Origin: a bacterium
Lineage (GTDB): Bacteria > Patescibacteriota > Minisyncoccia > UBA6257 > JAGOQP01
Direction of reading: 5' to 3'
Assembly: GCA_021814695.1 (NCBI GenBank)
Contig: JAKAHY010000003.1
Span: 20,692 to 84,691 of the forward strand
DNA: 64,000 nucleotides
The notes below the pieces were generated by a model. It was not told the origin of the DNA and did not search any database. It worked only from the letters and a program-made list of their open reading frames with translations. The position numbers and the translations under genes were made by a program. Position 1 is the first letter of the stretch. Each line of letters starts with the position of its first letter. Shown piece by piece: positions 2,879 through 50,216 of this stretch.

Positions 2879-2977
2879 ATTAACCCCATTAGAAGCAGAT
2901 ATGCGCTGCGAGCACTTGCAGACTCTATCTGGATAAAGCATCTTAAAAAAGCATCTATTTTGATATAATTTAAAATA

Positions 2978-3196
2978 ATGAAAATAACCGTGATTGCTAA
3001 AGTCGGAAAAAAAGAAGAAAAGATTATCAAATTAAATAACTTGTTGTTTGAAGTCTGGACAAAAATGCCCGCCAAGGAAAACAAGGCCAACGAAGATATT
3101 ATTCGCCAGCTGGCCCAATATTTTAAAATTCCCAAATCCCGAATCAGCCTTTATCTCGGCAGAACTCAAAAAGAAAAAGTTTTTGAAATAAAATAA
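2978..3196 (+). CDS. DUF167 / YggU-family small protein (72 aa)
   Basis: Size and pattern (VxVxAKxxKKEEKI, LxxxFxIPKSRISLYLGRTQKEK) fit UPF0235/DUF167. Followed by hairpin terminator AAAGACCATAATATGGTCTTT. Confidence 0.55.
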   Translation: MKITVIAKVGKKEEKIIKLNNLLFEVWTKMPAKENKANEDIIRQLAQYFKIPKSRISLYLGRTQKEKVFEIK

Positions 3197-5769: not shown

Positions 5770-7410
5770 ATGGCTAAGCAAATACTTTTTAATGAAAAAG
5801 CTAGGGATGCTATAAAAAGAGGAATCGATAAATTGGCCGAAGCGGTCAAGATGACCTTGGGTCCCAGAGGAAGAGCGGTTGTTATTGAAAAGGGATACGG
5901 CGCTCCGCAGGTAACTTTCGATGGAGTGACGGTTGCAAAGGAGATTGAGCTCGAAGATAAGTATGAAAATCTCGGAGCCGAATTCATAAAGCAGGCAGCC
6001 GACAAGACAAACGACGTCGTAGGCGATGGAACGACAACGTCGGTTGTACTTGCTCATGCGATGATAAACGAAGGCGAGAGGCTTATTCGCGAGAAAGGAT
6101 TTAATGTGATTCAGCTTTCGGAGGCTCTCAAAAAAATGAGCACGGACGTTATTAAAGAGCTCGAATCTCAAAGAGAGGTAATAGCGGACGACAAAAAAAT
6201 AAAAGAAGTCGCCACCCTTTCGGCGAAAGACGAAGGCATCGGAGAAAAAATAGCCGAAGTGATGAAAAAGATGGGCAAAGAAGGAGTTGTCACGGTTGAA
6301 GATTCAAATGCTATCGGAATAGACCACGAAATGGTGGAAGGAATGCAATTTGATAGGGGATACATTTCTGCTTATATGGTAACCAACCCCGATAAGATGG
6401 AGGCGACCATCGAAGATCCTTATATTCTTGTGACCGATAAGAAAATTTCCGCAATAAACGAAATTGTTCCGCTTTTGGAGAAAGTGATAAAGACCGGAAA
6501 AAAAGAAATGGTAATTATCGCCGATGACGTTGATGGAGAGGCTTTGGCAACTCTGGTACTCAACAAGCTTCGCGGAATATTTACCGTACTGGCTCTTAAA
6601 GCTCCGGGATTTGGGGACAGAAAAAAAGAAATGCTTCAGGACATCTGTGTTGTCACGGGAGCCGAATTTATTTCCGAAGAAATGGGCAGAAAGCTTGAAA
6701 ATGTAGATGTCACCAATTTAGGAACAGCCCGAAGAGTGGTGTCCAATAAGGACAATACAACAATAGTAGACGGAAAAGGCGGCAAGGACGCGATCGAAAA
6801 GCGCATCGCTCAGATTCGTTCACAGTTACAGAAAACGGAATCCGATTTCGATAAAGAAAAACTTCAGGAACGCTTGGGAAAACTTTCCGGAGGCGTGGGA
6901 GTTATCAAAGTTGGAGCTCCGACCGAATCGGCCCAAAAAGAACTGAAACAAAGAGTTGAAGATGCCGTAGCTGCCACAAAGGCGGCCATGGAAGAGGGAA
7001 TAGTCCCCGGAGGAGGAATGGCTCTTTACAATGTTTCTGTTAAGGGAGTTAAGCTTGCCGATGGATTTGATAAACATGTTTCGGAAGCGGCCAACTCAAT
7101 CATTCAAAAAGCCCTTCAGTCTCCTTTAGAGGCGATAGCGATCAACAGCGGTGCCGATTATAAAGGTGTTGTCGAAAAACTCGGAAAAGAAAAAGGAGAC
7201 AATTCATGGTTCGGATATAATGCGATGACCGATGAAGTGGGAGATTTAAAAGAGGCCGGCATTATTGATCCGCTGAAAGTTACCAAAACTGCTTTTATAA
7301 ACGCTCTTTCGGTTGCCGGAAATTATCTGACAATTGGAGCGGCGGTTACCGACATTCCGGAAAAGAAAGAAGAACCCAAAGGGATGCCGCATATGCATGA
7401 TTATGAATAG
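5770..7410 (+). CDS. groEL: Chaperonin GroEL
   Basis: 546 aa. AKQILFNEKARDAIKRGIDKLAEAVKMTLGPRGR is near-consensus Cpn60. A terminator hairpin follows at 7437-7468. Confidence 0.97.
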   Translation: MAKQILFNEKARDAIKRGIDKLAEAVKMTLGPRGRAVVIEKGYGAPQVTFDGVTVAKEIELEDKYENLGAEFIKQAADKTNDVVGDGTTTSVVLAHAMINEGERLIREKGFNVIQLSEALKKMSTDVIKELESQREVIADDKKIKEVATLSAKDEGIGEKIAEVMKKMGKEGVVTVEDSNAIGIDHEMVEGMQFDRGYISAYMVTNPDKMEATIEDPYILVTDKKISAINEIVPLLEKVIKTGKKEMVIIADDVDGEALATLVLNKLRGIFTVLALKAPGFGDRKKEMLQDICVVTGAEFISEEMGRKLENVDVTNLGTARRVVSNKDNTTIVDGKGGKDAIEKRIAQIRSQLQKTESDFDKEKLQERLGKLSGGVGVIKVGAPTESAQKELKQRVEDAVAATKAAMEEGIVPGGGMALYNVSVKGVKLADGFDKHVSEAANSIIQKALQSPLEAIAINSGADYKGVVEKLGKEKGDNSWFGYNAMTDEVGDLKEAGIIDPLKVTKTAFINALSVAGNYLTIGAAVTDIPEKKEEPKGMPHMHDYE

Positions 7411-7555
7411 TAATCAGTAAATAGTAATTAATAAATAAAACGGGGGTGATAAACGCCCCCGTTTTTATGTAGAGTTTTTTCGCTAATTACTAATAACCGA
7501 TTACCATTTACTGATAACGGGCGTTTTGTTTTTTATGCGATTATGATACAATTGA

Positions 7556-9397: not shown

Positions 9398-9730
9398 ATG
9401 AAAGAACTTGCCGGTTCCGAGCGGGCGCCGATGCCCGAACGGGAAGCAATTCGAAAAGAATTGGAGGCGCTCATTCAGATTGAAAATAATCCTCACTTAA
9501 AATCGCTTAATATAAGCGAAATAGGTGATGAAGAAATAGAACTGTTTGGAAAATATCTGAAAGGCTCGCTTGGGGAAATTGAATTAAAAATCCGGATGGA
9601 AGCCATATCCAAAGAGCTTCATTCCAAAGGCATTGGCAGCGAAAAAATCCTTGACGACTCACGGATGAATCTTTTAGCATATCTTTTGAACAAAACAATT
9701 CTTTCAAAAGTTGAAAATAAGCAGAAATAA
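9398..9730 (+). CDS. Hypothetical protein (110 aa)
   Basis: ORF only. Confidence 0.4.
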   Translation: MKELAGSERAPMPEREAIRKELEALIQIENNPHLKSLNISEIGDEEIELFGKYLKGSLGEIELKIRMEAISKELHSKGIGSEKILDDSRMNLLAYLLNKTILSKVENKQK

Positions 9731-9736
9731 AATCAA

Positions 9737-9761
9737 AATCCCGCTTAAAGCGGAAGGGTGC
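9737..9761 (+). repeat. 25-nt exact copy of the sequence spanning the tRNA-Ser 5' flank plus its first 10 nt (AATCCCGCTTAAAGCGGAAGGGTGC). The second copy is at 9948-9972
   Basis: Direct repeat seen in the sequence. Followed by a ~140-nt GC-rich segment (9762-9900) with long-range complementarity (CTGAAGCT / AGCTTCAG). Confidence 0.8.
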
Positions 9762-9962
9762 CCGCCTTGCGCCACCGCTGAAGCTAAGGCGGCACGTGGT
9801 CGCAAACCTCTTTCGCGTAAAGCTTCAGAGGTCACGGAATGCTACGGCGGGCAGGCAAGAGTTAGAGATGGAGAGTTCGCATAGTGGTCTAGTGCGCAAG
9901 ATTGTTCCCGATTTATCTGAAATTTTAAAAATGAAGTTATAAATCGCAATCCCGCTTAAAGC

Positions 9963-10049
9963 GGAAGGGTGCAGGAGTGGTTTAACTGGTGGTCCTGGAA
10001 AGACCATGTGCCAGAAATGGCACCGCGAGTTCGAATCTCGCCCCTTCCG
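9963..10049 (+). tRNA. tRNA-Ser (anticodon GGA), type II with a long variable arm, no encoded CCA
   Basis: Manual fold. Acceptor GGAAGGG/CCCUUCC, D-stem CAG/CUG, anticodon stem UGGUC/GACCA with loop CUGGAAA, variable stem GUGCC/GGCAC, T-arm GCGAG-UUCGAAU-CUCGC, discriminator G. Confidence 0.85.
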
Positions 10050-10053
10050 CTTT

Positions 10054-10141
10054 GTGCGGGAGAAAGCGTGTGTGGGGTAAAACCCACCGAGAGTTCGAAT
10101 CTCTCACCCTCCGCCATGTACGGGAGAAAGCGCGTGTCCCG
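10054..10141 (+). repeat. tRNA-like fragments: a ~60-nt acceptor/T-arm minihelix (…GAGAGUUCGAAUCUCUCACCCUCCGCCA) and a truncated second copy of its 5' 25 nt (10117-10141)
   Basis: Similarity to the tRNA-Ser 3' half (GAGTTCGAATCTC…CCTCCGC). Direct repeat TGTGCGGGAGAAAGCGTGTGTGGGG / TGTACGGGAGAAAGCGCGTGTCCCG. Confidence 0.6.
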
Positions 10142-23255: not shown

Positions 23256-23338
23256 AACCAAAAGACGACTTAAAGTCGTCTTATTTTTTTATCTTGTTAA
23301 AAATAAAATTAAAATGCCATAAATGGCAGGGATTTTTT

Positions 23339-23580
23339 GTCACCCCTTTAATCGTAAAAGAGTGGCGCCAAAACTATTATATTTTTTATCTATGAAGAGA
23401 TGGTGGATATTTTGCTACTTTTTGGGTCGGCAAAAAGTAGCGCAAAAACCGACAGGCTTTTGCAAATCTTATAATTAATTTATTTCGTTTGGGCTTCTGT
23501 CCAAAACTCAACCTCATTACATTCGGGATTTAAACAGTTGGACAGATTGCTTTGCAACCGCCCTCACTCGCATAAATTAA
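23339..23580 (+). repeat. Repeat element copy 1 (hairpin CACCCCTTTA…AAAAGAGTGG followed by a ~200-nt conserved tail with CTGTCCAAAACTC…TTGGACAG)
   Basis: Alignable to 24705-24880 and partly to 49845-50040. Confidence 0.65.
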
Positions 23581-23730
23581 TTAGATAAGATTTTCGGCCT
23601 GGTGTTTCCCTTATGTCATTCCAGCGGACGCTGGAATCCAGTATTCATCTATAAGATTTCTGGCTCAGGCTTATAAAAAATAAAAAAAACAGCTTGGCAG
23701 ATGCCAAGCTTGATGAGGATGAAGAAGGGT

Positions 23731-24054
23731 TCAGTTTGTGTGAGGGGGCTTCTCAACGAAGCCGTTGTCTTCCGCCCAGGCACGGAAGTCCGGTCCGGCG
23801 ACCTGGACGATGTTCTTGATCTCGACGATGAAGATCGTGCGCGGTCGGTAGTCGGTCGGGTCGGTGAACGCCTCCAGCTCTTCTTTGCAGTAGGCGATAC
23901 CGGCGGCCGAGAACATCGGGTTCTGGAGCAGCACTACCGGCAGGCATCCGGAGGGGACGGCGTCCCACTCCAGCGTTTTTCCTGGCACCTCGGTCCCGTA
24001 TTCGACGAGGAAGGTCTCCTTACTCATGTTGCGCGGGTTGATGTAGTAGCCCAT
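23731..24054 (-). CDS. High-GC hypothetical protein (107 aa)
   Basis: Promoter TTGACT-17-TATTAT, RBS AAGGAG, terminator AAGCTTGGCATCTGCCAAGCT plus T-run. Confidence 0.55.
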   Translation of the reverse strand: MGYYINPRNMSKETFLVEYGTEVPGKTLEWDAVPSGCLPVVLLQNPMFSAAGIAYCKEELEAFTDPTDYRPRTIFIVEIKNIVQVAGPDFRAWAEDNGFVEKPPHTN

Positions 24055-24229
24055 TGCCCTCTCCTTTCTTTTCCTTATTTGAGTTAACAGCTAGTTAAAT
24101 AATAACATAATTAGTCAAATAAGTCAATAATTGAATATCAAATTCCTAATTACTAATGTCTAATTACTAACACACATAAGTAAAAAAAGTGGCCCATCTC
24201 CGAAGAGTTGGGCCGTTGGGTGCTGATTT

Positions 24230-24313
24230 CTACTTCCCGTTGGAAGAGTTGGCCTCCTCGATGAGGGGATCGAAGAAGCTGTTGAGTGCGTCGTCGAAGG
24301 TATCGAATTCCAT
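24230..24313 (-). CDS. 27-aa acidic peptide (MEFDTFDDALNSFFDPLIEEANSSNGK)
   Basis: Promoter TTGACA-16/17-TATACT, RBS AAAGGAGG 6 nt from ATG, intrinsic terminator GGCCCAACTC-TTCG-GAGATGGGCC plus T7. Confidence 0.45.
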   Translation of the reverse strand: MEFDTFDDALNSFFDPLIEEANSSNGK

Positions 24314-24704
24314 TTCCGGCCTCCTTTTGAAGTTCTAAACTGTTTAAAGTATAGCATAAAATTAAGATTTGTCAATAAGGTGTGATTAATTACTATTAAC
24401 TGTTTACTATTAACTGATTACTTGTTATCATTCAATTACAACTTAATAGAAGTTATCAAGAGTGGCGGGGAGGGAATTGGCCCCATGATCCGCCCAGCAA
24501 CTTGTCTTAGGTCTCGACGCTTAGGATAAAGTGCTAAATCCAATCCCCGAAGGCGTACTCGTCCTGAGCTCGCCGAAGGAGAGAGATAAGGTAGGTCGAT
24601 TTTTAATGCCTTTAAACTCTTTCCTTCTCGGGAGAGAGTTTTTCTTTGCCTCGTCGAAGCTTTAGCGAAGGCGGGTATTTATTATCCTTTCGGGCAATGG
24701 CTGT

Positions 24705-24880
24705 TTGCCACCCTTTTGACCGCAAAAGGGTGGCGTCTAAAACTCCCAGGCTTAACATATGCTTATAATTCAGTCGATTCGCGCTTCGCTCCTGTCCACA
24801 ACTCGCTTCGCTCAAACAAGTGGACAGCAAAACAGCTCGCGCTCATCTGACTGGATTAAATAAGCATATGTGGCCTGGCC
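24705..24880 (+). repeat. Repeat element copy 2 (hairpin CCACCCTTTTG-ACCG-CAAAAGGGTGG plus conserved tail CTGTCCACAACTC…GTGGACAG)
   Basis: Direct-orientation partner of copy 1. Compensatory changes preserve the stem. Confidence 0.65.
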
Positions 24881-24968
24881 GTTGAGAGTTATCACGGATA
24901 TCAAAAAATCCGTATAAATCCGTTACATCAGCATTAATCCGTGTAGTAATTAATATCTAACTAATAAC

Positions 24969-25172
24969 ATGATCATAAACGCAAACGATGAAAATAACAG
25001 AAAAGGTTTCATAATTGGAACCAGCGTGGCTCATCTGAAAAAATATAAAAAAACCGTAATACAAAGGGCGGTCGATAACGAACTCATTCCTATAAGTACT
25101 AAGGGAAAAACAAAAGAAGAGATTGTTAAAGAACTGATGAAACAAGCGAAACATATTATTGATCGCAATTAA
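24969..25172 (+). CDS. Hypothetical small basic protein (67 aa)
   Basis: ORF only. Confidence 0.35.
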   Translation: MIINANDENNRKGFIIGTSVAHLKKYKKTVIQRAVDNELIPISTKGKTKEEIVKELMKQAKHIIDRN

Positions 25173-25216
25173 TCTCAACTTCTATCCATTTATATCAACT
25201 AATATCTATTAACATC

Positions 25217-26182
25217 ATGCTTAACGAAAAAATAAGAACCTGCGAATACGTCTCCCCAAAACATCCAGATAAAATCTGTGACCAAATTGCCGATGCTATT
25301 CTGTCCGCTTATCTGAAAAAAGACAAAAAAGCGCGGGTGGCGGTGGAAGTTATGGGCGGGCACGGAGTGATAAATATATCGGGAGAAATAACCAGTAAAG
25401 CGAAAGGCATAAAAATACGAGATATAGTAGAGAAAGTGATATATGAGGGAACCGATATAGATAGAGATAGATTGAGATACGGTGGAGATAATATAAAAAA
25501 TAGAGATAAATTAAAACACAATAGATACAAAATCAATATAAACATTACTCATCAAAGCCCGTTTATTGCGCATGGAGTGGATACCGGCGGAGCGGGAGAT
25601 CAGGGAGTTATGGTCGGCTATGCCTGCAACGAGACCAAATCGCTGATGCCTCTGGAATACGAACTGGCCAAAAATTTGTGCCTGAATATTTACAAAAAAT
25701 ATCCTTATGACGGAAAAACTCAGGTAACTATAGACGGCAAAAAAGTTACGGCAGTTGTCGCCAGTTTTCAAAACACCAAAACTCCGGAATTGGAAAAATT
25801 GGTCAGGCGGCTCATAAAATCGGAAAAATATTTTATCAATCCTGCGGGGGAATGGCCGGTCGGAGGATTTGACGCCGACAGTGGGCTTTCGGGAAGAAAA
25901 ATTGTAGTTGATGCTTACGGACCAAACGTTCCGGTCGGAGGCGGAAGTTTTGCCGGCAAAGACCTGACTAAAGTAGACCGAAGCGGAGCGATGATGGCCC
26001 GAAAAATTGCCGTTGAGCTTCTAAAAAAGCACAAAGCCAAAGAGGTGCTGGTGAAACTGGCTTATGTAATTGGCGTACAACAGCCGGTAATGGCAGTGGC
26101 TTTAGCTGATGGAAAGTTGATTGAAGTAAAAGGCAGGGATTTGAGTACGAAGGGGATAGTGGAAACTTTGAGTTTTATCTGA
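25217..26182 (+). CDS. metK: S-adenosylmethionine synthetase, unusually short (321 aa), with a low-complexity insert encoded by GATA-rich DNA
   Basis: HPDKICDQIADA, GAGDQGVMVGYA, and GGGSFAGKDLTKVDRSGAMMARKIA are MetK motifs. Confidence 0.82.
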   Translation: MLNEKIRTCEYVSPKHPDKICDQIADAILSAYLKKDKKARVAVEVMGGHGVINISGEITSKAKGIKIRDIVEKVIYEGTDIDRDRLRYGGDNIKNRDKLKHNRYKININITHQSPFIAHGVDTGGAGDQGVMVGYACNETKSLMPLEYELAKNLCLNIYKKYPYDGKTQVTIDGKKVTAVVASFQNTKTPELEKLVRRLIKSEKYFINPAGEWPVGGFDADSGLSGRKIVVDAYGPNVPVGGGSFAGKDLTKVDRSGAMMARKIAVELLKKHKAKEVLVKLAYVIGVQQPVMAVALADGKLIEVKGRDLSTKGIVETLSFI

Positions 26183-26221: not shown

Positions 26222-29200
26222 ATGCCCCAAAAGATCTCAGATTATATAACCGAGGTATCAGATAAATATAAAACTGGCCGTGCCGGAGAGCATGCTTATA
26301 GGCCCACTTTTGAAAAGCTCATTAAGTCGATAGATCCAAAACTTTCGATCATTAACGATCCGAAACGTACAGAACACGGAGCGCCTGATTTTATATTTGT
26401 AAGGGGAGACTTGATAGCGGGCTATGTTGAGACAAAAGATATAGATGAGGATCTTGATAAGACTGAAAAATCAGAACAGATAGAAAGATATTTAGGTTAT
26501 TCAAATCTAATTCTCACTAATTATCTCGAATTTCGTTTTTTTAGAAACGGAGAACATTATGGCGAGCATATTATTATAGGGAAGATAATTGACGGAGTCG
26601 TTAAAATTCAAGAAGATCAGATCAGTTCTTTGGAAGATGTTATTTTTGATTTTTTATCTGCTAAGCCAGAAGCTATAAAAAGTGGAATTCGTCTGGCAAA
26701 AATTATGGGAGGTAAGGCGCGCCGTATAAGAGATAGCGTAAAACAATTTCTGACTAAAGAATCGGAAGATAATCAAGAACTCTCGCGCGTTTACGAAACA
26801 ATAAAAAAACTTCTGGTTCACGATTTAACTTCCGAATCATTTGCGGATATGTACGCTCAGACTCTTGTTTATGGGCTTTTTGTGGCTCGTTATTATGACG
26901 AATCTCCGGATAATTTTACGCGTCAAGAAGCGCGTGATCTTATACCGGCATCAAATCCATTTCTGCGTCATTTCTTTGACCATATTGCTGGTCCGGATTT
27001 TGATAAACGATTAGCTTATATAGTAAATGAACTTTGTGAGGTTTTCTCGGTCGCGGATGTTCAAGTTCTCATGAGTCAGTATTTTAAGCAAGAGGATTTG
27101 TGGGGGAAGATACATAAAGGCCCTGATCCGGTTATCCATTTTTATGAGGATTTTTTAAAAGAATATGATTCTGAATTGCGTAAAAAAATGGGAGCATTTT
27201 ATACTCCATTACCAGTTGTAGATTTTATTGTCCGGTCAGTTGATTATCTCCTCAAAAAAGAGTTTAACTTATCCGGGGGCCTTGCTGATGCTACTAAGAC
27301 AGGGTTAGTGCACAAAGTTCAAATTCTTGATCCAGCCGTAGGGACGGGAACATTTATTAGTGAAATTATTCGTACTATCTATCAAAGTTTTTCTGGGCAA
27401 GAAGGACGTTGGCCGACTTATGTTTATCATGATCTTTTGCCTCGTTTACATGGCTTTGAATTAATGATGGCGCCTTACACCATTGCCCACCTTAAATTTA
27501 GTATGATGTTAAAGGAGACGGGTTTTAAACACTTTAACAATAGTAGGCTTGGTATCTATCTGACAAATTCTCTAGAGAATGGAGACGCTCAAGATAGTTT
27601 ATTTACAGGATTTGGTTTTGCCGAGAGTATTGCGGAGGAATCCAAAGAGGCGTCAAAAATCAAGAATGAAAAACCAATCATGGTTGTTGTTGGTAACCCG
27701 CCATATAGCATTAGCTCCTCGAATAAGGGTGAGTGGATTCTAAATCTTATTAAAGACTACAAAAAAGACTTGGGCGAAAGAAAAATTAATCTAGATGATG
27801 ACTATATAAAATTTATTCGTTTTGCAGAACATTTTATAGAAAAAAATGGAAGTGGTATTGTAGCTATGATAACCAATAATTCATTTATTGATGGAATTAC
27901 TCATCGTCAAATGAGGAAGCATTTATTGGAAACATTCGACAATGTTTATATTCTTAATTTGCACGGCAATTCTAAGAAAAAAGAAAAGTGTCCAGACGGT
28001 AGTAAAGATGAGAATGTTTTTGATATTCAACAAGGCGTATCTATTTCAATTTTTGTAAGAAAAGAAGGCAAAAAACAAGAATTAGGAAAAGTATTCCACT
28101 CTGAATTATACGGCAGACGTCAAGATAAGTTTGAGAAACTTAATTCTTTTGATTTAGAAAACATAAAATGGCAAAGACTTAATACCATAGAGCCTTATTA
28201 TTTCTTTATCCCAAAAGATTTTAGTTTGAGTGATTCTTATGATAACTTTTTCTCTATAACAGATCTGTTCAAAATTTATTCAGCAGGGATAAAAACTAAA
28301 GTTGATAACATATCAATAGACTTTGAAAGAGAATCACTCGGGAAAAGAGTTGAAGACATACTTACAAATAAATATTCATTGCAAGAAGTCATTAAAAAAT
28401 TTAGCTTGAATCCAAAAACTACCTGGGAATACAACAATGTTCTGAGGGCGAGTTTTAACGATAAAGTTTTGTCTTTCTATGATTATAGGCCGTTTGATAG
28501 AAGATTTATCTACTATGATAAAAATTTTCTTTCCAGAAGTAGATCGCAAGTAATGGATAATTTTTTTAATAAAGATAATATAGGCTTAGAAACTTCACGT
28601 ATGGGTGATTACATTTTTATTTCTAAAAATATTTCAGACGAGCATTTTGTTTCAGATAATTCATTTAAATTTCCACTTTATCTGTACCTAGATAATGGTC
28701 AGCAAATATCCAATCTTAAAAATGAGATCGTGGGAAAAATTACAGGAATTACTGGCAAAGCAGCTCCCATAGATATTCTTGATTATATTTATGCAGTCCT
28801 CCATTCGCCTAATTATAGAAAAAAATATGAGGAATTTTTAAAAATTGACTTCCCGCGGATACCATATCCAAAAGACAGAAAAACCTTTGAGAAATTAGTG
28901 AGTTTTGGAAAAGAGTTGAGAGAACTGCATCTTTTAGAATCTACAAAGCTTAAAAACTTTATCACGACATTTCCAGAATCAGAAAGTGATCTCGTTGAGT
29001 CAAAATATCCAAAATATAAGGATGGGAATGTTTATATAAATAGTACTCAATATTTTGGTAATGTTTCAGAAGTTATCTGGAATTTCTACATAGGAGGATA
29101 TCAACCTGCTCAAAAATGGCTTAAAGATCGCCAAGGCCGAAAACTTTCAAATGAAGACATTGAACACTATCAAAAGATGATTGTAGCTTTGATGGAGACA

Positions 29201-29242
29201 GACGGGGTTATAAAAGAAATTGATAAAATTTATGTTCAATAA
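26222..29242 (+). CDS. Type IIG restriction-modification enzyme (MmeI-like PD-(D/E)XK endonuclease fused to a gamma-class N6-adenine methyltransferase and a target-recognition region)
   Basis: N-terminal PD…ExK (APDFIF…GYVETKD), MTase motif I (ILDPAVGTGTF), motif IV (VVVGNPPYS). 1006 aa. Confidence 0.8.
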   Translation: MPQKISDYITEVSDKYKTGRAGEHAYRPTFEKLIKSIDPKLSIINDPKRTEHGAPDFIFVRGDLIAGYVETKDIDEDLDKTEKSEQIERYLGYSNLILTNYLEFRFFRNGEHYGEHIIIGKIIDGVVKIQEDQISSLEDVIFDFLSAKPEAIKSGIRLAKIMGGKARRIRDSVKQFLTKESEDNQELSRVYETIKKLLVHDLTSESFADMYAQTLVYGLFVARYYDESPDNFTRQEARDLIPASNPFLRHFFDHIAGPDFDKRLAYIVNELCEVFSVADVQVLMSQYFKQEDLWGKIHKGPDPVIHFYEDFLKEYDSELRKKMGAFYTPLPVVDFIVRSVDYLLKKEFNLSGGLADATKTGLVHKVQILDPAVGTGTFISEIIRTIYQSFSGQEGRWPTYVYHDLLPRLHGFELMMAPYTIAHLKFSMMLKETGFKHFNNSRLGIYLTNSLENGDAQDSLFTGFGFAESIAEESKEASKIKNEKPIMVVVGNPPYSISSSNKGEWILNLIKDYKKDLGERKINLDDDYIKFIRFAEHFIEKNGSGIVAMITNNSFIDGITHRQMRKHLLETFDNVYILNLHGNSKKKEKCPDGSKDENVFDIQQGVSISIFVRKEGKKQELGKVFHSELYGRRQDKFEKLNSFDLENIKWQRLNTIEPYYFFIPKDFSLSDSYDNFFSITDLFKIYSAGIKTKVDNISIDFERESLGKRVEDILTNKYSLQEVIKKFSLNPKTTWEYNNVLRASFNDKVLSFYDYRPFDRRFIYYDKNFLSRSRSQVMDNFFNKDNIGLETSRMGDYIFISKNISDEHFVSDNSFKFPLYLYLDNGQQISNLKNEIVGKITGITGKAAPIDILDYIYAVLHSPNYRKKYEEFLKIDFPRIPYPKDRKTFEKLVSFGKELRELHLLESTKLKNFITTFPESESDLVESKYPKYKDGNVYINSTQYFGNVSEVIWNFYIGGYQPAQKWLKDRQGRKLSNEDIEHYQKMIVALMETDGVIKEIDKIYVQ

Positions 29243-29294
29243 AATAAAAATAATATAAATTTTAAATAAGTTTTGATGATGGTACGATAATTTT

Positions 29295-31454
29295 ATGAAA
29301 AAAATACAATTAAAATTAGCAAATTGCTACGGAATTAAGAAATTAGAAAGAGATTTTGATTTTTCGAATAACGGTACTTATGTAATTTATGCTCCCAATG
29401 GAGTTATGAAAACTTCATTTGCGAAGACATTTAAAGACTTAAGTTTAGGATTAAATTCTAAAGATTTGATTTTTCCAGAAATAGAGACGATCCGTGAGAT
29501 TAATAAAGAGAACAATACTAATTTGTCTAAAGAGGAAGTTTTTGTTGTAGAGCCATATAATGAGGATTTTAATTCAGAAAAAATATCTACCCTTTTGGTT
29601 AATAAAGAATTGAAAGGCAGATATGATAAAATCCATTTAAAAATTGATGAAGAAAAGAGCGGGTTACTAAAAGAATTAAAAAACTTATCTGGATTTCGAG
29701 ATGATATCGAAGAAGAAATTTCTCAAGCTTTTACAAGTGAGGACGATAGATTATTTGATTCTCTAGAAAGGGTGGAAAAAGAAGTTATGGATATTTCAGA
29801 ACCTGTGTATTCTGATATTTCTTATAAAGAGATTTTCAATGAAAAGGTTCTAAATTTTCTGATGACTAAGGATTTCAAAGAAAAAATTGAGCAATATATT
29901 AAAAAATATGACGAATTAATTGAAAGTTCAAAATATTTTAAAAAAGGTATATTTAATCATAATAATGCATCAGTTATAGCCAAGAGTTTAGTAGATAATG
30001 GTTTCTTTAAAGCACAACATTCCATTTCTTTAAATACAAGAGAAAGTAAAAATGAAATTTACACCAAAGAAGAACTTGAAAAAGTCATTGATGAAGAAAA
30101 AAACGCTATATTGAATAACCCTGATTTGGTGAAAGTTTTTGAAGAGTTGGACAGCAAATTAAAAGCTAATAAAGAATTGCGTGATTTCAGAGATTATTTG
30201 TTAAATAATCCAAAAATTTTACCAGAACTGAAAAATCTTGATAGTTTTCGACAAAAATTATGGGTATCCTATTTTAAGAGTCAAAAAGATTTATACGAGA
30301 GTTTCTTAAAGGAATACCATTCTGGAAAAAGTGAATTGGACAAAATAATAGAACAAGCTAAAACAGAAGCAACGCACTGGATGGATGTGATAGACATCTT
30401 TAATGAAAGGTTTTCAGTTCCGTTTAAGCTTAGTATAAAAAATCAGGGTGATGTTATTTTAAAACGAGATGTTCCTAGTATCGCTTTTATATTTAAAGAT
30501 TCAAATGGCGAAGTTCCTGTAGAAAAATTAAATTTACTCCAAGTATTAAGTAGCGGAGAGAAACGTGCTCTGTATATCTTAAACATAATTTTTGAAGTTC
30601 AAGCAAGAAAAGAAGAAAATCAGGAAACCCTATTTATTATTGATGATATAGCAGATTCTTTTGACTATAAAAATAAATACGCGATTGTTGAATATTTGAA
30701 AGATATTTCGGAAGAAACAAATTTTTATCAAATAATTTTAACTCATAACTTCGATTTTTTTAGAACCGTTCAGAGCAGGTTTGTTCCTTATGATAATTGT
30801 TTAATGGTTGAAAAAACAACTGAAGAATTAAAAATAGTAAAAGCAGATTATATAAAAAATCCATTCAAATACTGGATGAATCATTTAGATGATGATAAAA
30901 AATTAATAGCATCAATTCCGTTTGTAAGAAATCTTATTGAATACACAAAAGACACAAACGATGATGATTTTTTGAAATTAACATCATTATTACACGTTAA
31001 ATCAAATTCCGATTCTATTTTTAAAAGCGATTTACAAAATATTTATAAAAGTATATTTCCTAACTTATCACTAACCTTAATAGGTAAAGATGAAAAGGTT
31101 ATTAATTTAATTTTTAATTTAGCAGATACCTGTTTAACTGCGACCGTAGGCATAAATCTAGAAAATAAGATTCTTCTTTCTATTGCTATTAGATTGGTAG
31201 CGGAAAAATTTATTTTAAGTAAGATAACTGATAAAAGTGAGATTGTCGGAAAACAAACAAGGAAACTTTTTGAAAGATTTAGAAATGAATTTAATAAAGA
31301 TAATTTTGAACAAGAAAATATTAAAATACTAGAGCAAGTTAATCTTATGACTCCAGAAAATATACACTTTAATTCATTTATGTATGAGCCTATTTTAGAT
31401 ATGTCGGATGATCATTTGAAAAACTTATATAACGAAGTGAAAAAATTAAAATAA
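29295..31454 (+). CDS. SMC/OLD-like ABC ATPase (719 aa) with a degenerate Walker A and a ~390-aa helical insert between Walker A and the signature motif
   Basis: The N-terminus follows the OLD/AAA_21 pattern (MKKIQLKLANCYGIKKLE…YAPNGVMKTSFAKT). Signature LSSGEKRALYIL, Walker B/D-loop LFIIDDIADSFD, H-loop ILTHN. Confidence 0.65.
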   Translation: MKKIQLKLANCYGIKKLERDFDFSNNGTYVIYAPNGVMKTSFAKTFKDLSLGLNSKDLIFPEIETIREINKENNTNLSKEEVFVVEPYNEDFNSEKISTLLVNKELKGRYDKIHLKIDEEKSGLLKELKNLSGFRDDIEEEISQAFTSEDDRLFDSLERVEKEVMDISEPVYSDISYKEIFNEKVLNFLMTKDFKEKIEQYIKKYDELIESSKYFKKGIFNHNNASVIAKSLVDNGFFKAQHSISLNTRESKNEIYTKEELEKVIDEEKNAILNNPDLVKVFEELDSKLKANKELRDFRDYLLNNPKILPELKNLDSFRQKLWVSYFKSQKDLYESFLKEYHSGKSELDKIIEQAKTEATHWMDVIDIFNERFSVPFKLSIKNQGDVILKRDVPSIAFIFKDSNGEVPVEKLNLLQVLSSGEKRALYILNIIFEVQARKEENQETLFIIDDIADSFDYKNKYAIVEYLKDISEETNFYQIILTHNFDFFRTVQSRFVPYDNCLMVEKTTEELKIVKADYIKNPFKYWMNHLDDDKKLIASIPFVRNLIEYTKDTNDDDFLKLTSLLHVKSNSDSIFKSDLQNIYKSIFPNLSLTLIGKDEKVINLIFNLADTCLTATVGINLENKILLSIAIRLVAEKFILSKITDKSEIVGKQTRKLFERFRNEFNKDNFEQENIKILEQVNLMTPENIHFNSFMYEPILDMSDDHLKNLYNEVKKLK

Positions 31455-31470
31455 ATAATTAAAAGATTTT

Positions 31471-32880
31471 ATGACCATAATGATTTTACTAATAATAAAT
31501 ACTTTTGGAATCGCTCTTTTGACATTTCTGTTTTTTAAGAATAAACAATCTGATAATGCCGGCCAAATAACAAAAGCTGTTGAGATTTTATTTGATAGAA
31601 TGGATAAGGCTTTTAAGGAAGAAATGTCTCTAAATAGAAAAGAGTCGGCAGACTCAGAAAAAAGATTACGCGAAGAAATTTCTAGCTCATTTAAGGGATT
31701 TGGAGATTCGCTTGATAAAAGAATGTCCGAACTTGCTAGTACTCAAAATAAGAATTTTGAAGGATTTTCTATAAAACTTACAGAATTAATTGATAAGAAT
31801 GATACAAAAATAGAAAAAGTCAGAGAAACAGTTGAAAGAAAGCTTGAAAATATACAAAAAGACAACGGCGAAAAATTAGAAATGATGAGGCAGACAGTAG
31901 ACGAGAAGCTCCAATCTACCTTAGAGAAGAGACTGGGAGAATCATTCAGGCAAGTAAGCGACAAACTGGATTCTGTCCATGTCGGGCTTGGAGAAATGAG
32001 AAATCTGGCGTCTGACGTTGGTGGTCTAAAAAAAGTTTTAACAAATGTAAAAACACGCGGTATCTGGGGTGAGGCACAACTGGGTGCTTTACTGGACCAG
32101 GTATTATCTCCGGAACAGTATGCAAGTAACGTTGCAGTTAAGCGTGATGGCAGAGAAAGAGTAGAATATGCTATCAAATTACCAGGCACTAAAGAAGACG
32201 GAAGTGATCCCGTGTGGTTGCCTATAGATTCAAAATTTCCTCAAGAAGATTATGATCGTCTAATTAGCGCATACGAACAAGCAGATGCCAATGCAATTGA
32301 TGTAGCGTCTAAACAACTGGAGCTTAGGATTCGCAATGAAGCCAAAAGTATCAACGAAAAATATATTGATCCACCCAATACAACAGATTTTGCCATATTA
32401 TTTTTACCATATGAAAGTTTATATGCAGAGGTTATTAGGCGCCCCGGTCTCTGCGAAACAATTCAAAGAAGCTACAGGGTTACAATAACGTGTCCGTCAA
32501 CATTGGGTGCTTTATTAACCAGTCTTCAAATGGGATTTAAAACTCTTGCTATACAAAAGAGATCAAGTGAAGTGTGGGAAGTGCTCGGAGCAGTAAAAAC
32601 GCAATTTGGTAAATTTTCTAACTTGCTCGAAAAAACTCAAAGACAATTGAAAACCGTAGCTGGTACAATTGAAGAAGCTACTAAAAAAACCAAGACAATT
32701 GAGGGTAAACTAAGAAAAGTACAACAATTACCAGAATCTTTATCAATTAAGGTACTAAAAGGAGTGGAAGAGTTGGAAAATAGCCAGGAGGATGCAGAAG
32801 GAATAGAAAAGACGTCAATTTCTGAGACGCAAGAAGATTTTTCAGATAAAGAGATTAGATCAGAAGACCTACCGTTTTAG
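31471..32880 (+). CDS. rmuC: DNA recombination protein RmuC, second full-length paralog (469 aa)
   Basis: TM helix, coiled coil, RmuC core DFAILFLPYESLYAEVIRRPGL…RVTITCPSTLGALLTSLQMGF. Confidence 0.85.
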   Translation: MTIMILLIINTFGIALLTFLFFKNKQSDNAGQITKAVEILFDRMDKAFKEEMSLNRKESADSEKRLREEISSSFKGFGDSLDKRMSELASTQNKNFEGFSIKLTELIDKNDTKIEKVRETVERKLENIQKDNGEKLEMMRQTVDEKLQSTLEKRLGESFRQVSDKLDSVHVGLGEMRNLASDVGGLKKVLTNVKTRGIWGEAQLGALLDQVLSPEQYASNVAVKRDGRERVEYAIKLPGTKEDGSDPVWLPIDSKFPQEDYDRLISAYEQADANAIDVASKQLELRIRNEAKSINEKYIDPPNTTDFAILFLPYESLYAEVIRRPGLCETIQRSYRVTITCPSTLGALLTSLQMGFKTLAIQKRSSEVWEVLGAVKTQFGKFSNLLEKTQRQLKTVAGTIEEATKKTKTIEGKLRKVQQLPESLSIKVLKGVEELENSQEDAEGIEKTSISETQEDFSDKEIRSEDLPF

Positions 32881-35800
32881 GTATCATTCTTCAATAAATC
32901 CTCCTCAAAACTTTTGATTCCGTTGAAGCCCATTTCTGCGTATTTTGATATGTCCGGAAAGTCGAGATTTATTATTTTCTTATAAACAATGCCTATTAAG
33001 GCCTTTAGGCGCTCAACTTCTTGCGGATCTATGTCCAGTGTTAGCCCAACGAGTTCTTTATGAAGGGGTTCTATAAAGCTTATAACTCCTTTATTTACCG
33101 TATATTTATTTCCGAATGCTTTGGAGTTTTCTATAAGGAGTTTATAGAATATTAACTGATTACGGTTGCGCCAGGCCTTAATTTTTGCGTACTGGTCGGT
33201 TGGGGACCAGCTATCTATTGGTTTTCCGGTTTTAAAATCCTCAACTATCATTTTGTTCCCTTCGATTTTTATTTTATCTATTCTTCCTGTTATGGGCGTT
33301 CCGTCTATAATTGCCCCCTCCTTTTTGAAATCAAATTCACTCTTATCGTCAATTGAAAAAGATTTCTTCTTCTGATTATAAAAGTTTTCAATTGCTTTCT
33401 GTCCTCTTTGCAGTAGGAGATCAAAATCCTTTTGGTTGAGCCGTCCGTTTTTTAGGGATTCTTCAAACCAAATTAACACCTCTTTAGTCGGAGGTAGTTT
33501 TTTATTATTTTTTAGGTAGTTGTATGTGCGTTTGATAGTTTCATGAGCGGCCGATCCAAGAATGCCACTTGGGGTCTTTGGTTCAGGAAATAAAAGCAGA
33601 TTTTTTTCAAAGAAAGTTGCTGGTCCGCCATCAACAACATTTAAGAAATTCTGTAAATGAGTAACGTTGAGTTTATAGTCGTCCAAAATTGGTTTTAAAA
33701 GCGCTTTTTCTTCGGCTACAAAAGGGGGAGTGTGCAACATATTTAATTGATCAACTAGCATCTCTTCCGGAACTCGATTAATATCTTTTATTTCAATAAA
33801 TTCTGGTTCAAAAGATTTTAAAGCACCTTCCGGGGATATAAATCCAAGGCGAGAAGATTCTTTTCCCTTGTTGTCATATTTATATGATGTCAGATATAAC
33901 AATCTTTTGGCTCTGGTGATGGCAACATAAAAAAGTCGGAGTTGATCATCTATATTGTCTCCTGCTGGGCTGATGGGTAAATTCGATGGCAGGGTTATAT
34001 TATTTCTACCTCGTCCGGTTCCGGCCCAGGAATCTTCCTGGCAATTTAAAACAAATACGGCTTCAAATTCCAATCCTTTGGCTTTGTGTGCGCTCATCAA
34101 TTGGACCGCTTCGTTGGAATTAATAAAAGGACTGGTGTTATTTATGGGGAGGTTGTTTTTTGTGTGGATGTCAAAAAATTCAATCATCTCTCCAATATTT
34201 ACTCTTTTACCACGTCTATATTCTCTTAGGGATTCAATAAATGATTTTAATGAAGATAGAAAATTTAAATAATCTGCTCTGTGTTTGGTAAATTTGTCCT
34301 TGTTAAAATAATAAGATCTAAATGGACTAAACATATCATTGCTACCCGCAGTTTCTTCCTCGGTTTTTTCATCTGAAAGGATTTGCTGGGGTCCACCAAT
34401 GAGCTCCTGGAGAACTTCTTCTGCCGTTGCGTAAGTTGCTAGTCCTCCCAAGTTAATGAAAAATTCCGCTATGTCACTTAGCTGTCCTCCTAATTCTTTC
34501 ATAACCATAAGCCACGGCTTGTTTTCTTTTATAGCCTTTATAGAAAGCTCCCAAATCATTGATCGTTTTATATTCCAGAACGGATAGTTTAATATCTCCG
34601 GTAAAAAGTTATCGGCATCGTCCGATTTTTTCATTATAGAGTCAACAAATTTGGCCATCGTGATAAGTTCCAAAATGTGCGGTTCCTGCAAAACATTTTG
34701 CTGGCGTTCGTAAGCAATTGGAATTTTAGCCATGTGGAAATAAGGAGCTAGAGATTCAAGGTCTTTATGTTCGCGAGCGATAACGGCAATTTCTTTGGGG
34801 GATATGCCTTGTTCAATCAATTTTTTTATTTCGGTTGTTATCCAATGATATTCTATTTCTTTGGAAGCAAATTCTTTTGAATGGATTTTTCCATCTTTTA
34901 TATTTTTATTACTGGCGATCAGCTCTTTTTTTAATTCTGGAAAGATATTTTCAAGACGATTAACACCTTTTTTAATTATAAGTTTTGCTGCGTCTAATAT
35001 GTCTTGAGTTGATCGATAATTTTCTTTAAGAACTATTAGCTCTGGTTTGCGGTATGTGTTTTGAAAACCGCTGACGTTGGTAATTTCTGCCCCCTGAAAT
35101 TTGAAAATTGCCTGGTCATCGTCTCCGACAACCATTATATTGGGTCTGCCTTCGTTGACAGGGTTATCAGTTAGAAGCTTCAATAACCTCATTTGGGCAT
35201 CATTGGTGTCTTGAAATTCATCCACAAGAATATATTGGTAGCGTTCCTGTAAGTCCAGTTTTACGTTTAAATTGTTTTCGAGCACGGAGATTGCGTCCAG
35301 GATCATATCGTCAAAATCATAATATTCGTTTTCTCTCAACTTCTTCATATATTTTTCGTATATGTCGGCTAACGCCTCCATCCTTTCGATGTTTAAAAGA
35401 TCGGTGATATGCCTGAATCCATCCTCGCCTTTTTCTGTCCATTCATTTTTCCATTCTGTTACTGGGGATGTTGCATTCAAATCCTCGGCGTTTTTGACGG
35501 CTTGGGCGAGTGAGTACGCTAGTGATTGAGCAAAAGGTCTAAAGAAGCCCGGTAATTTTTTAGATTTAAAAGCGCCGATCTCCTTGGCGGCTGAAATTGC
35601 GGCAGGATATAATTTTTTTGAGATCCTGTCATTAAAAACAGATTTGATTATTGGGTCTGCATGTTCTATTTCTTTTTTATTTTCGGCTAATATAGTTTTG
35701 AATTCATCCGGAGTAAGCCCGGCTTTTTTAAGATATTCGATCGCCTTTTTTGTTTTATATAAGTAAGTAAATTGACCATTGAACTCTGATCGCAGGGGAT

Positions 35801-36203
35801 TATCATATGGAAGTTCGGTAAATATTTTTTCTAATATTTCTGTCTGTGTTATCTGGTCAGCAGGAAGAAGAGTGGCGCCATTATAAAAATATTCCGGATA
35901 ATAATTTATTATTTCAACTCCAAAACTATGAAAAGTATGGATAGAAACTCTGTATGCGTCATGGCCGATAAGACCAGCTAATCGGTTGCGCATATTGAAT
36001 GCGGCGGCGTCGGTAAATGTTAAACACAATATATTTCCTGGGGAGGCGTCAGTATTTTTTAAAATATTAGCCACACGCAAGCTCAGAAGCTCGGTTTTTC
36101 CGGATCCCGGCCCGGCTATAACCATCACGGGGCCATCTATGGTATCAACGGCCTGTTTTTGTTGTTTATTTAAATTTTTAATCCTATCTTCAAATGTGCT
36201 CAT
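32877..36203 (-). CDS. UvrD/PcrA-like superfamily-1 helicase fused to a C-terminal RecB-family PD-(D/E)XK nuclease domain (1108 aa)
   Basis: Helicase motifs: AGPGSGKT, DEFQDTN, VGDDDQAIFKFQGA, NYRST. Nuclease motif: GRIDKIKIEGNKMIVEDFKTGK. Confidence 0.85.
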   Translation of the reverse strand: MSTFEDRIKNLNKQQKQAVDTIDGPVMVIAGPGSGKTELLSLRVANILKNTDASPGNILCLTFTDAAAFNMRNRLAGLIGHDAYRVSIHTFHSFGVEIINYYPEYFYNGATLLPADQITQTEILEKIFTELPYDNPLRSEFNGQFTYLYKTKKAIEYLKKAGLTPDEFKTILAENKKEIEHADPIIKSVFNDRISKKLYPAAISAAKEIGAFKSKKLPGFFRPFAQSLAYSLAQAVKNAEDLNATSPVTEWKNEWTEKGEDGFRHITDLLNIERMEALADIYEKYMKKLRENEYYDFDDMILDAISVLENNLNVKLDLQERYQYILVDEFQDTNDAQMRLLKLLTDNPVNEGRPNIMVVGDDDQAIFKFQGAEITNVSGFQNTYRKPELIVLKENYRSTQDILDAAKLIIKKGVNRLENIFPELKKELIASNKNIKDGKIHSKEFASKEIEYHWITTEIKKLIEQGISPKEIAVIAREHKDLESLAPYFHMAKIPIAYERQQNVLQEPHILELITMAKFVDSIMKKSDDADNFLPEILNYPFWNIKRSMIWELSIKAIKENKPWLMVMKELGGQLSDIAEFFINLGGLATYATAEEVLQELIGGPQQILSDEKTEEETAGSNDMFSPFRSYYFNKDKFTKHRADYLNFLSSLKSFIESLREYRRGKRVNIGEMIEFFDIHTKNNLPINNTSPFINSNEAVQLMSAHKAKGLEFEAVFVLNCQEDSWAGTGRGRNNITLPSNLPISPAGDNIDDQLRLFYVAITRAKRLLYLTSYKYDNKGKESSRLGFISPEGALKSFEPEFIEIKDINRVPEEMLVDQLNMLHTPPFVAEEKALLKPILDDYKLNVTHLQNFLNVVDGGPATFFEKNLLLFPEPKTPSGILGSAAHETIKRTYNYLKNNKKLPPTKEVLIWFEESLKNGRLNQKDFDLLLQRGQKAIENFYNQKKKSFSIDDKSEFDFKKEGAIIDGTPITGRIDKIKIEGNKMIVEDFKTGKPIDSWSPTDQYAKIKAWRNRNQLIFYKLLIENSKAFGNKYTVNKGVISFIEPLHKELVGLTLDIDPQEVERLKALIGIVYKKIINLDFPDISKYAEMGFNGIKSFEEDLLKNDT

Positions 36204-49785: not shown

Positions 49786-49844
49786 GTTTTTTATTGCTTT
49801 TAATCATAAACAAATGCTGCCAAAGTCGGCAGCTATTTTTATCA

Positions 49845-50040
49845 CCCTTTGTTCCGGCAAAGGGTGATACCTAAACCGGCAAGTTTTATATATTCTCTCA
49901 ATTAAATCAAAACAAATATTTCGCTTTATCTTGAACTCGTCCTCACTTTGTTCGGACTCAAACAATCAAGACAATTCTCACTTTTTATGAAAAGTGAAAA
50001 ATCGCTTATATTTGCTTGATTTAATTATGCTCGCATATAT
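49845..50040 (+). repeat. Repeat element copy 3 (hairpin TCACCCTTTG-TTCCGG-CAAAGGGTGA plus a partly conserved tail), directly upstream of the 50.2 kb RNA promoter
   Basis: Similarity to the hairpins at 23341 and 24714 and to the flanking …CTAAAAC… tail. Confidence 0.55.
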
Positions 50041-50181
50041 AACTTGATTGATAAGATGAGAGAGCAGAAACCAGTTTTTTAATACAAAAAAGCGCCTAAT
50101 TTTTCGGCGCATCACCTTTCACAATCAAAGATCGTTCGTTGCAATTCAAAAAGAGGCCATATTTGCCGATTCTTGTAAGGC

Positions 50182-50209
50182 TTGACAAATATATTCATTA
50201 TGCTATAAT
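50182..50209 (+). promoter_or_regulatory. Consensus sigma70 promoter TTGACA-16-TATAAT
   Basis: Direct reading. Confidence 0.7.
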
Positions 50210-50216
50210 GCACTCG

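Follow-up and report, generated by a model that had tools for sequence, protein, structure and literature searches.

Structured intergenic elements that follow terminators in one lineage of Patescibacteria

The genomes of Patescibacteria are very small, and mobile elements and known regulatory RNAs are rare in them; a noncoding sequence that recurs in one of these genomes raises the question of what it is kept for. The case treated here comes from a window (the whole stretch analyzed, 64,000 nucleotides [nt] of contig JAKAHY010000003.1, assembly GCA_021814695.1, positions 20,692 to 84,691) in which an earlier note had recognized three copies of a repeat headed by a hairpin, two of them on either side of a group of small genes. 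Two interpretations were offered, direct repeats left by a mobile islet or a family of small RNAs with covarying stems. Are these sequences really copies of one element and, if so, is it the DNA or a transcript that is being conserved? Our analysis describes a lineage-restricted family of structured noncoding elements; the reading that we prefer, tentatively, is that they act as a folded single strand, most likely as + strand RNA produced by read-through.

Three dissimilar copies of one element

The members of the family that were located in the window are the following.

23340 to 23375, + strand: degenerate head standing alone (copy 1a), formed by the imperfect hairpin TCACCCCTTT/AAAGAGTGG (two 1x1 mismatches) and the linker GCCAAAAC
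23414 to 23601, + strand: complete copy 1b, identified by sequence, fold and covariance-model matches
24707 to 24878, + strand: complete copy 2, in the metK leader between the terminator of a SAM riboswitch and a 67-amino-acid (aa) open reading frame (ORF)
49841 to 50046, + strand: complete copy 3, identified by sequence, folds, a match to covariance model R2 and a 90% identical ortholog (L034 2920-3131)

Compared pairwise by BLASTN, the window copies do not match each other significantly (E values of 2.8 and 9.0, and no alignment for one pair), and their identity is only 46 to 56%. Two instances of the pattern CACCCTTT-N(2-14)-AAAGGGTG are found in the window, against none in 100 shuffled versions. 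The copies are bridged by an element on a related metagenome contig (L004d, at L004 11048-11242), which matches copy 2 with an E value of 3e-21 and copy 3 with 1e-13. A covariance model (R2) built from four relatives outside the window, with no window sequence included, was run over 110 kb and recovered the three window copies at full length (copy 2, 127.8 bits, E = 2.2e-38; copy 1b, 107 bits, E = 6.5e-32; copy 3, 87.8 bits, E = 6.4e-26) together with the L034 ortholog, and gave no other match; copy 1b also reached 157.8 bits with a model other than R2. Since L004d links the copies and R2 retrieves exactly these three, their homology is secure, and we consider the family real and the window copies homologous although dissimilar by BLASTN. 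Identity among eight family members ranges from 43 to 93%. Another model (R1) was applied to the window, the relatives and about 16 kb of additional flanking genome without adding any copy, more divergent ones included; the count stands at three full copies in about 80 kb of this genome.

Neither Rfam 15 nor the phage and plasmid collections searched contain the family, which consists of lineage-restricted structured elements following terminators. At the Rfam 15 gathering threshold, the sole match in the window was the SAM riboswitch, with none for the three copies, over which permissive scans gave only subthreshold, chance-level matches. L004d had no BLASTN match in the phage or plasmid collections, and the two patterns tried on viral contigs retrieved no more than a single unrelated phage sequence, present in four samples. 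A metagenome scan gave 12 loci, of which only 4 were genuine, all of them from a single orthologous locus in related strains; one further locus, in three related strains, is all that the collection scans added. We found nothing specific in the literature on such repeats or structured RNAs in Patescibacteria.

The complete unit is noncoding and about 170 to 210 nt long. A T-run is followed by a head stem of 11 to 12 bp, with a loop of 4 to 6 nt, and by an A-rich linker of 6 to 8 nt ending in AAAC; by the structural alignment, there are then exactly 3 nt before CARGYTT, the start of a basal helix that is interrupted by small bulges and spans about 30 bp. The helix ends in a three-way junction that carries an apical arm made of an 8-bp stem, an unpaired AACTC, a variable hairpin and an unpaired (C)TCAAACA, the conserved pair of unpaired motifs in this long hairpin being AACTC / CTCAAACA. 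On the 3' side of the junction lies a side hairpin, TTGC-TTY-GCAA in most copies, absent from copy 2 and enlarged in copy 3, and the L020 copy has an extra 20-nt perfect palindrome near it. The part that follows the head and linker (the rod) is thus an imperfect hairpin of about 135 to 165 nt, with fold z-scores from -4.8 to -11.4 (single sequences: copy 2, -11.4, with a minimum free energy of -80.6 kcal/mol; copy 1 region, -4.8; copy 3, -5.8). All the features listed in the earlier note, namely, the hairpins, the linker CTAAA(A)C and the motif CTGTCCA(A/C)AACTC...(T/G)TGGACAG, are present at their places. Its account of the unit, right as to the head hairpin and the motifs, was too short in presenting the roughly 200 nt as hairpin plus motifs and missing the rod.

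Copy 1b has the head GCTACTTTTTG-GGTCGG-CAAAAAGTAGC (23414-23441) and the linker GCAAAAA, and its CCGAC (23449-23453) is complementary to the GTCGG of the head loop. Its rod (23453-23601) contains the inner stem CTGTCCAA (23497-23504) / TTGGACAG (23538-23545), AACTC at 23505-23509 and the side hairpin TTGC-TTT-GCAA. The head at 23414-23441 had been taken for an analogous hairpin within an insertion of about 80 nt in copy 1; by its correct spacing and its loop complementarity, it is instead the cognate head of this rod. Copy 1a, the hairpin at 23340-23367, has no rod of its own and matches the profile by nhmmer only partially, at positions 3-44. The GCTAC-type head of copy 1b recurs in L004 (91% identity over 35 nt). 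In copy 2, the head is GCCACCCTTTTG-ACCG-CAAAAGGGTGGC, the linker GTCTAAAAC and the rod CCAGGC...GGCCTGG, with the inner stem at 24792-24799 / 24820-24827, AACTC at 24800-24804 and TCAAACAA at 24812-24819; it lacks both the side hairpin and the complementarity of loop and linker. A 35-aa ORF that crosses its rod is not conserved; it is cut short after 13 codons in L004d and has no ATG in copy 1b. Copy 3 has the head ATCACCCTTTG-TTCCGG-CAAAGGGTGAT, the linker ACCTAAA and a CCGG complementary to the CCGG of the loop; its rod (CAAGTT...AACTTG) includes AACTC at 49934-49938, CTCAAACA at 49957-49964 and the enlarged side hairpin CTCACTTTT-TATG-AAAAGTGA.

The fold is conserved by compensatory changes

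Pairs were counted in a model-fitted alignment of seven sequences that represent about five independent lineages. Standard pairs occupy 93.0% of the 440 pair cells, compared with 81.6% when partners were shuffled, and the paired fraction falls to 31 to 46% when partners are slid by one to three columns. Both sides have changed in 30 of the 64 pairs, a number reached by none of 500 shuffles. Whole helices have been swapped, as in the apical stem, which is CTGTCCAC/GTGGACAG in the window copies versus TTTTATTT/AAATAAAA in L004. Judging by these counts, we conclude that the fold is kept by compensatory substitutions, and the structural part of the earlier proposal, a family with covarying stems, is strongly supported.

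A second level of structure is suggested by the pairing of the head loop with the 4 to 5 bases after AAAC, found as GTCGG/CCGAC, GCTGG/CCAGC, CCGG/CCGG and GTCA/TGAC and missing from copy 2 alone. Three of the four pairs of this candidate pseudoknot covary. Modeled on the + strand, the layout would be that of a classical H-type pseudoknot, with a loop 1 of 1 to 2 nt and an A-rich loop 3 of 6 to 7 nt. Three stretches of the unpaired motifs (AAAC, AACT and AAACA) show no variation in any of the eight sequences, although they lie between variable stems. The side hairpin and the apical hairpin are variable or expandable, as expected for the permissive sites of a folded molecule. The interleaved loop-linker pairs and the conserved asymmetric loop are not what is expected from a palindromic DNA repeat.

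Selection on copy 3

Evidence for selection comes from contig L034, which has a metallophosphoesterase gene 82% identical to that of the window and carries the positional ortholog of copy 3 (2920-3131). The two elements are 90% identical over 213 nt, whereas the adjoining gene is 78% identical overall and 52% at fourfold-degenerate third positions. In 60-nt windows over the 3.2 kb of synteny, the element gives 0.90, 0.97, 0.80 and 0.95, among the highest values. The 23 differences affect 7% of the paired versus 16% of the unpaired columns; those in paired columns are one compensatory change (C-G to U-A), three mismatch repairs and one wobble, the rest being two that leave an existing mismatch and one terminal A-U to A.C. 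Because the element is so much better conserved than the neighboring fourfold sites, we conclude that copy 3, at least, is under purifying selection at the sequence level, and it can be argued from this orthologous conservation that copy 3 now does something for its host. Diverged copies that have been kept, a compensated fold and a conservation like that of the best coding neighbors make junk unlikely in such a small genome, and the element is probably functional.

Copy 3 had also been described as abutting the promoter of an RNA. It ends at 50046 and the -35 box lies at 50182, about 135 nt away; synteny with L034 stops at 50125, and the relative lacks the G+C-rich 740-nt segment together with its promoter. 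As the relative has copy 3 without the downstream RNA, the two are not tied to each other. The segment itself (50182-50985) is a feature in its own right. Its roughly 740 nt stand behind a perfect promoter, TTGACA-16-TATAAT, and end in a terminator-like hairpin; it has no Rfam match, is overlapped by a 207-aa ORF on the - strand and is absent at the orthologous locus in both L034 and L035.

Genomic setting and transcription

Six independent loci are available, namely, copies 1, 2 and 3 (the last with L034), one downstream and one upstream of metK in L004, and the L026 group. At all six, the element is co-oriented with the upstream gene and is immediately preceded by a hairpin and T-run resembling an intrinsic terminator or, at the least, by a T-run. 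The gene on its 3' side is co-directional or convergent and belongs to no consistent class. The 5' flank common to every copy is (GG)..T-run..G/A. Two of the terminators are as follows.

23305 to 23339, + strand: terminator-like hairpin TGCCATAAATGGCA followed by GGGATTTTTTG, from a terminator scan, directly 5' of copy 1
49816 to 49840, + strand: bidirectional terminator of the metallophosphoesterase gene, GCTGCC-AAAGTC-GGCAGC followed by TATTTTT, from a two-strand scan, directly 5' of copy 3 and kept in L034

The genes of the window are mostly housekeeping ones on the + strand (GroEL, DnaG, RpoD, alanine racemase, ABC transporters). Copy 2 has a SAM-I riboswitch (49.2 bits) and its terminator upstream and the 67-aa ORF, without a Pfam match, and metK downstream. 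The riboswitch and terminator (24450-24641) are 625 nt upstream of a short metK (321 aa, 24969-26182), an odd gap that the presence of copy 2 in the leader accounts for. In L004, where metK is 83% identical, there is a full copy after metK and a broken one between riboswitch and metK, and the distance from riboswitch to metK is much shorter than in the window. The broken copy consists of the GCTAC head and the 3' half of the rod, with two REP-like palindromes inserted.

The element could work as a folded single strand, most likely as + strand RNA made when transcription of the upstream gene reads through. For copy 2 and the broken L004 copy, inclusion in the metK leader transcript would be unavoidable whenever the riboswitch permits transcription. 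The conserved internal loop (AACUC / CUCAAACA) and the candidate pseudoknot may serve a host factor as a module for binding or processing, one possible example of its use being an insulating or stabilizing structure at the ends of transcription units, and new copies might arise by rare duplication or transposition into sites behind terminators. The choice of the + strand has some support, from a U.G wobble at columns 46-234 in six of seven sequences, from series of the type C-G <-> U.G <-> U-A, from the geometry of the candidate pseudoknot and from the position of copy 2 within a leader transcript. A more specific version, about which we are more hesitant still, is that the element represents an undescribed class of structured RNA in one Patescibacteria lineage, of about 190 nt, with a pseudoknot cap, a three-way-junction rod and the AACUC/CUCAAACA loop, existing as a few diverged and selected paralogs behind terminators and without a recognizable promoter. 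If it is RNA, it would add a structured class with a conserved loop of a size suited to a protein or ligand to a phylum whose RNA biology is scarcely known; if the fold works at the DNA level, it would point to a terminator-targeting mobilization system undescribed in these bacteria.

Several observations weigh against a functional + strand RNA. No sigma-70-like promoter was detected for any copy on either strand, despite near-consensus promoters elsewhere in the genome, and since the copies follow terminators on the + strand, their transcription would need read-through. There is no clear strand asymmetry (on the + strand, 23 G.U cells, 15 A.C and 16 other mismatches), and the - strand folds slightly better in seven of seven sequences. 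The covariation comes from only eight sequences of about five independent lineages, aligned by fitting them to the structure, and in the rod, similar pair counts could result from a palindromic DNA repeat. The family is also narrowly distributed. No copy was found in about 117 kb of relatives with metK 69 to 76% or phosphoesterase 61 to 62% identical, and the head pattern gave eight matches in the GTDB species representatives, all due to chance according to nhmmer. The site orthologous to that of copy 1 is empty in L004, whereas copy 3 is kept in L034, these genomes being too diverged for a clean empty-site comparison. Decayed copies exist, as a solo head and as a rod interrupted by palindromes. 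Family restriction, decayed copies and the empty site of copy 1 would fit a selfish repeat as well.

Similarities to known elements

Small structured intergenic repeats of 100 to 200 nt are known from bacteria, among them ERIC/IRU, Correia/NEMIS, RUP, BOX and CIR of Caulobacter (PMC2229807). They are co-transcribed with neighboring genes, their transcripts fold into long stem-loops, ERIC has an orientation-dependent effect on mRNA stability, and in CIR, the arms are joined by a linker; such families are characterized by terminal inverted repeats, by duplication of a TA target and by copies that resemble each other and number in the tens to hundreds (PMC2229807). It is to the ERIC, CIR or BOX-type repeats that our element is closest in kind, with its 170 to 210 nt, its long hairpin and, for copy 2, its location in a leader transcript. 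In contrast to them, it has no visible duplication, its three copies in about 80 kb are only 46 to 56% identical, and it combines a head capped by a candidate pseudoknot, a three-way junction and conserved asymmetric loops with a low copy number and one selected copy.

Other resemblances are more limited. The attC sites of integrons, which are read as single-stranded DNA, share with the element a diverse sequence with a conserved imperfect-hairpin fold, conserved unpaired features and a uniformly oriented location at the 3' end of gene units. An assignment to attC was rejected; the RYYYAAC...GTTRRRY boxes are not conserved (copy 2 alone has GCTTAAC, without a GTT partner), no intI was found among the ORFs scanned in the 64 kb, and there is no cassette array. 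Group IIC introns lie immediately downstream of intrinsic terminator motifs and are oriented as the upstream gene (PMC1702495), as is the element. They were also rejected, the element having about 190 nt against at least 700 nt, no domain V/VI, no intron-encoded protein and no Intron_gpII or group-II-D1D4 match even at E<=10. Neither is it a retron msr-msd, no reverse transcriptase domain being found in the neighboring ORFs. The head resembles H-type pseudoknot RNAs such as the preQ1-I/II and SAM-II/V aptamers, in its short loop 1 and in the pairing of its loop with bases that follow directly on an A-rich linker. However, stem 1 of the element, at 11 to 12 bp, is much longer than in those aptamers, a rod of 135 to 165 nt follows, there is no Rfam match, and no class of genes is regularly found downstream of the element.

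Alternative explanations

The alternative that survives best, possible though less probable than the RNA reading, is a nonautonomous mobile element whose folded single strand would be recognized, as DNA, by a transposase or recombinase from another part of the genome and which would insert after terminator hairpins, its fold being selected for mobilization and not for a function in the host. The enzyme could be of the HUH type (IS200/IS605, REP/RAYT) or a tyrosine recombinase, like the one that acts on the attC sites of integrons. The head, with its hairpin, single-stranded linker and short base-paired "guide", resembles the way in which sites are read by HUH enzymes. Mobility would agree with the lineage restriction, with a position that varies (after metK in L004, before it in the window), with the empty copy 1 site in L004 and with the existence of a solo head and an interrupted copy. 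The copies are mosaic as well, copy 2 having a 34-nt identical run with L004d and the apical stem of copy 1b, and we conclude, from sequence comparison, that individual copies can decay and that copies exchange segments. A single orientation behind terminators is as reported for group IIC introns (PMC1702495), and the absence of a promoter and of a wobble asymmetry between the strands also suits DNA. Inverted repeats are present at the ends of the rod (CAGGC(T)/(G)GCCTG; CAAGTT/AACTTG in copy 3), the complementarity spanning the whole rod with the head outside it. Against mobile DNA, a Pfam scan of about 40 window ORFs revealed no transposase, integrase or reverse transcriptase, no Y1 HUH transposase gene lies within about 80 kb of this genome, and five independent copies show no target-site duplication in their 5' and 3' flanks. 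The copy number is low, the divergence among the intragenomic copies (46 to 56% identity) indicates no recent burst, and an orthologous identity of 90% next to 52% at silent sites is unexpected for an inert insertion.

Transcription of the other strand is a less likely explanation. The elements would then be independent small-RNA genes on the - strand, read as rod, pseudoknot and head and ending at the flanking bidirectional terminator. The minimum free energy is lower on this strand in all seven sequences (e.g., -68.2 versus -53.4 kcal/mol for copy 3), several A.C mismatches of the + strand turn into G.U, and copies 1 and 3 run, on the - strand only, directly into a terminator-like hairpin and T-run. 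On the other hand, no promoter was found to the right of any rod, the right flanks have no common motif, and copy 2 and L004d have no - strand terminator. The conserved U.G at columns 46-234 becomes a conserved C.A mismatch, and by H-type geometry, the pseudoknot would have a loop 3 of 0 to 1 nt across a 4- to 5-bp stem, which is probably sterically unfavorable.

It is improbable that the elements are functionless palindromic DNA, in which the complementarity of the arms is maintained by quasi-palindrome template switching or gene conversion and not by selection. This lineage does make perfect G+C-rich palindromes (the insert CCTGCCTGCCGGCAGGCAGG in L020, CCCGACTAGTCGGG in L022 and GTCATTCCAGCG..CGCTGGAATCCAG), and G.T and A.C mismatches are about equally frequent, but the internal-loop motifs that are conserved are asymmetric and nonpalindromic, the loop-linker pairs interleaved with the head covary, and copy 3 is 90% identical to its ortholog, against 52% at silent sites.

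The weakest is the mobile islet of the earlier note, in which copies 1 and 2 would be the direct repeats left by integration of a 1.35-kb cassette with its mini-genes, an idea that we consider very improbable because the two copies are 56% identical, unlike attachment-site duplicates, the 1.1 kb between them holds the SAM-I riboswitch and terminator of metK, which are core regulation rather than cargo, and no recombinase was found among the ORFs scanned. What spoke for it was the direct orientation of the two copies around 23602-24706, the small ORFs between them, G+C rich relative to the surroundings, and a region left of 24423 that differs in a strain 99.9% identical elsewhere. Besides a REP-like palindrome, the metK promoter and the riboswitch with its terminator, the segment between copies 1b and 2 contains two small ORFs.

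23731 to 24054, - strand: G+C-rich ORF of 107 aa without a Pfam match, with a near-consensus promoter at 24127-24099
24237 to 24314, - strand: G+C-rich ORF of 25 aa, with a near-consensus promoter at 24375-24348 (TTGACA-16-TATACT)

With the riboswitch in this position, recombination between copies 1b and 2 would delete the control region of metK. The strain in question (L003, 1-663) is 99.9% identical to the right of 24423, and to the left, the island is replaced by the 3' end of a radical-SAM/SPASM-like ORF. The breakpoint, 24422/24423, is not at a repeat but about 285 nt from copy 2 and inside the promoter region, and it marks a recent rearrangement beside the metK promoter. Copy 3 and the copies in L004, L026 and L034 bracket nothing comparable, and direct repeats around an islet are, in this case, not the scars of an integration.

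Other features of the window

Short G+C-rich palindromes behave as separate mini-insertions (window 23615-23641; L004 9780-9925; the L020 and L022 copies). One of them, GTCATTCCAGCGGACGCTGGAATCCAG, has a single occurrence in the window and two in L004, and CCTGCCTGCCGGCAGGCAGG (L020) and CCCGACTAGTCGGG (L022) are perfect palindromes within otherwise near-identical copies of the element. An AT-rich motif, TAATTACTAAT or similar to GTCTAAT, forms clusters upstream of genes in this genome and in a relative.

Window 7406 to 7520, 24130 to 24165, 24385 to 24420 and 24940 to 24960: clusters of TAATTACTAAT / GTCTAAT-like motifs
L004 6590 to 6650 and 9930 to 9990: clusters of the same motifs

After metK (26222-36203), there is a defense island of about 28% G+C with a Type ISP restriction-modification enzyme, an SMC-like ATPase, RmuC and a UvrD/PD-(D/E)XK helicase-nuclease. 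The defense genes at the same place differ in the relatives, with RadC, DUF3800, a methyltransferase and GmrSD in L004 and a Type III restriction-modification system in L029. Tandem repeats similar to tRNA-Ser lie at 9730-10125 (9998-10061 and 10062-10125 are 72% identical, 9730-9761 and 9941-9972 are 94% identical), a region in which ARAGORN recognizes one tRNA-Ser only, at 9963-10050. Finally, a separate structured intergenic element, unrelated to the repeat family, is located at 2739-2878; it has an 18-bp closing stem, a fold z-score of -6.1 and 25-nt arms that are 92% complementary and 102 nt apart.

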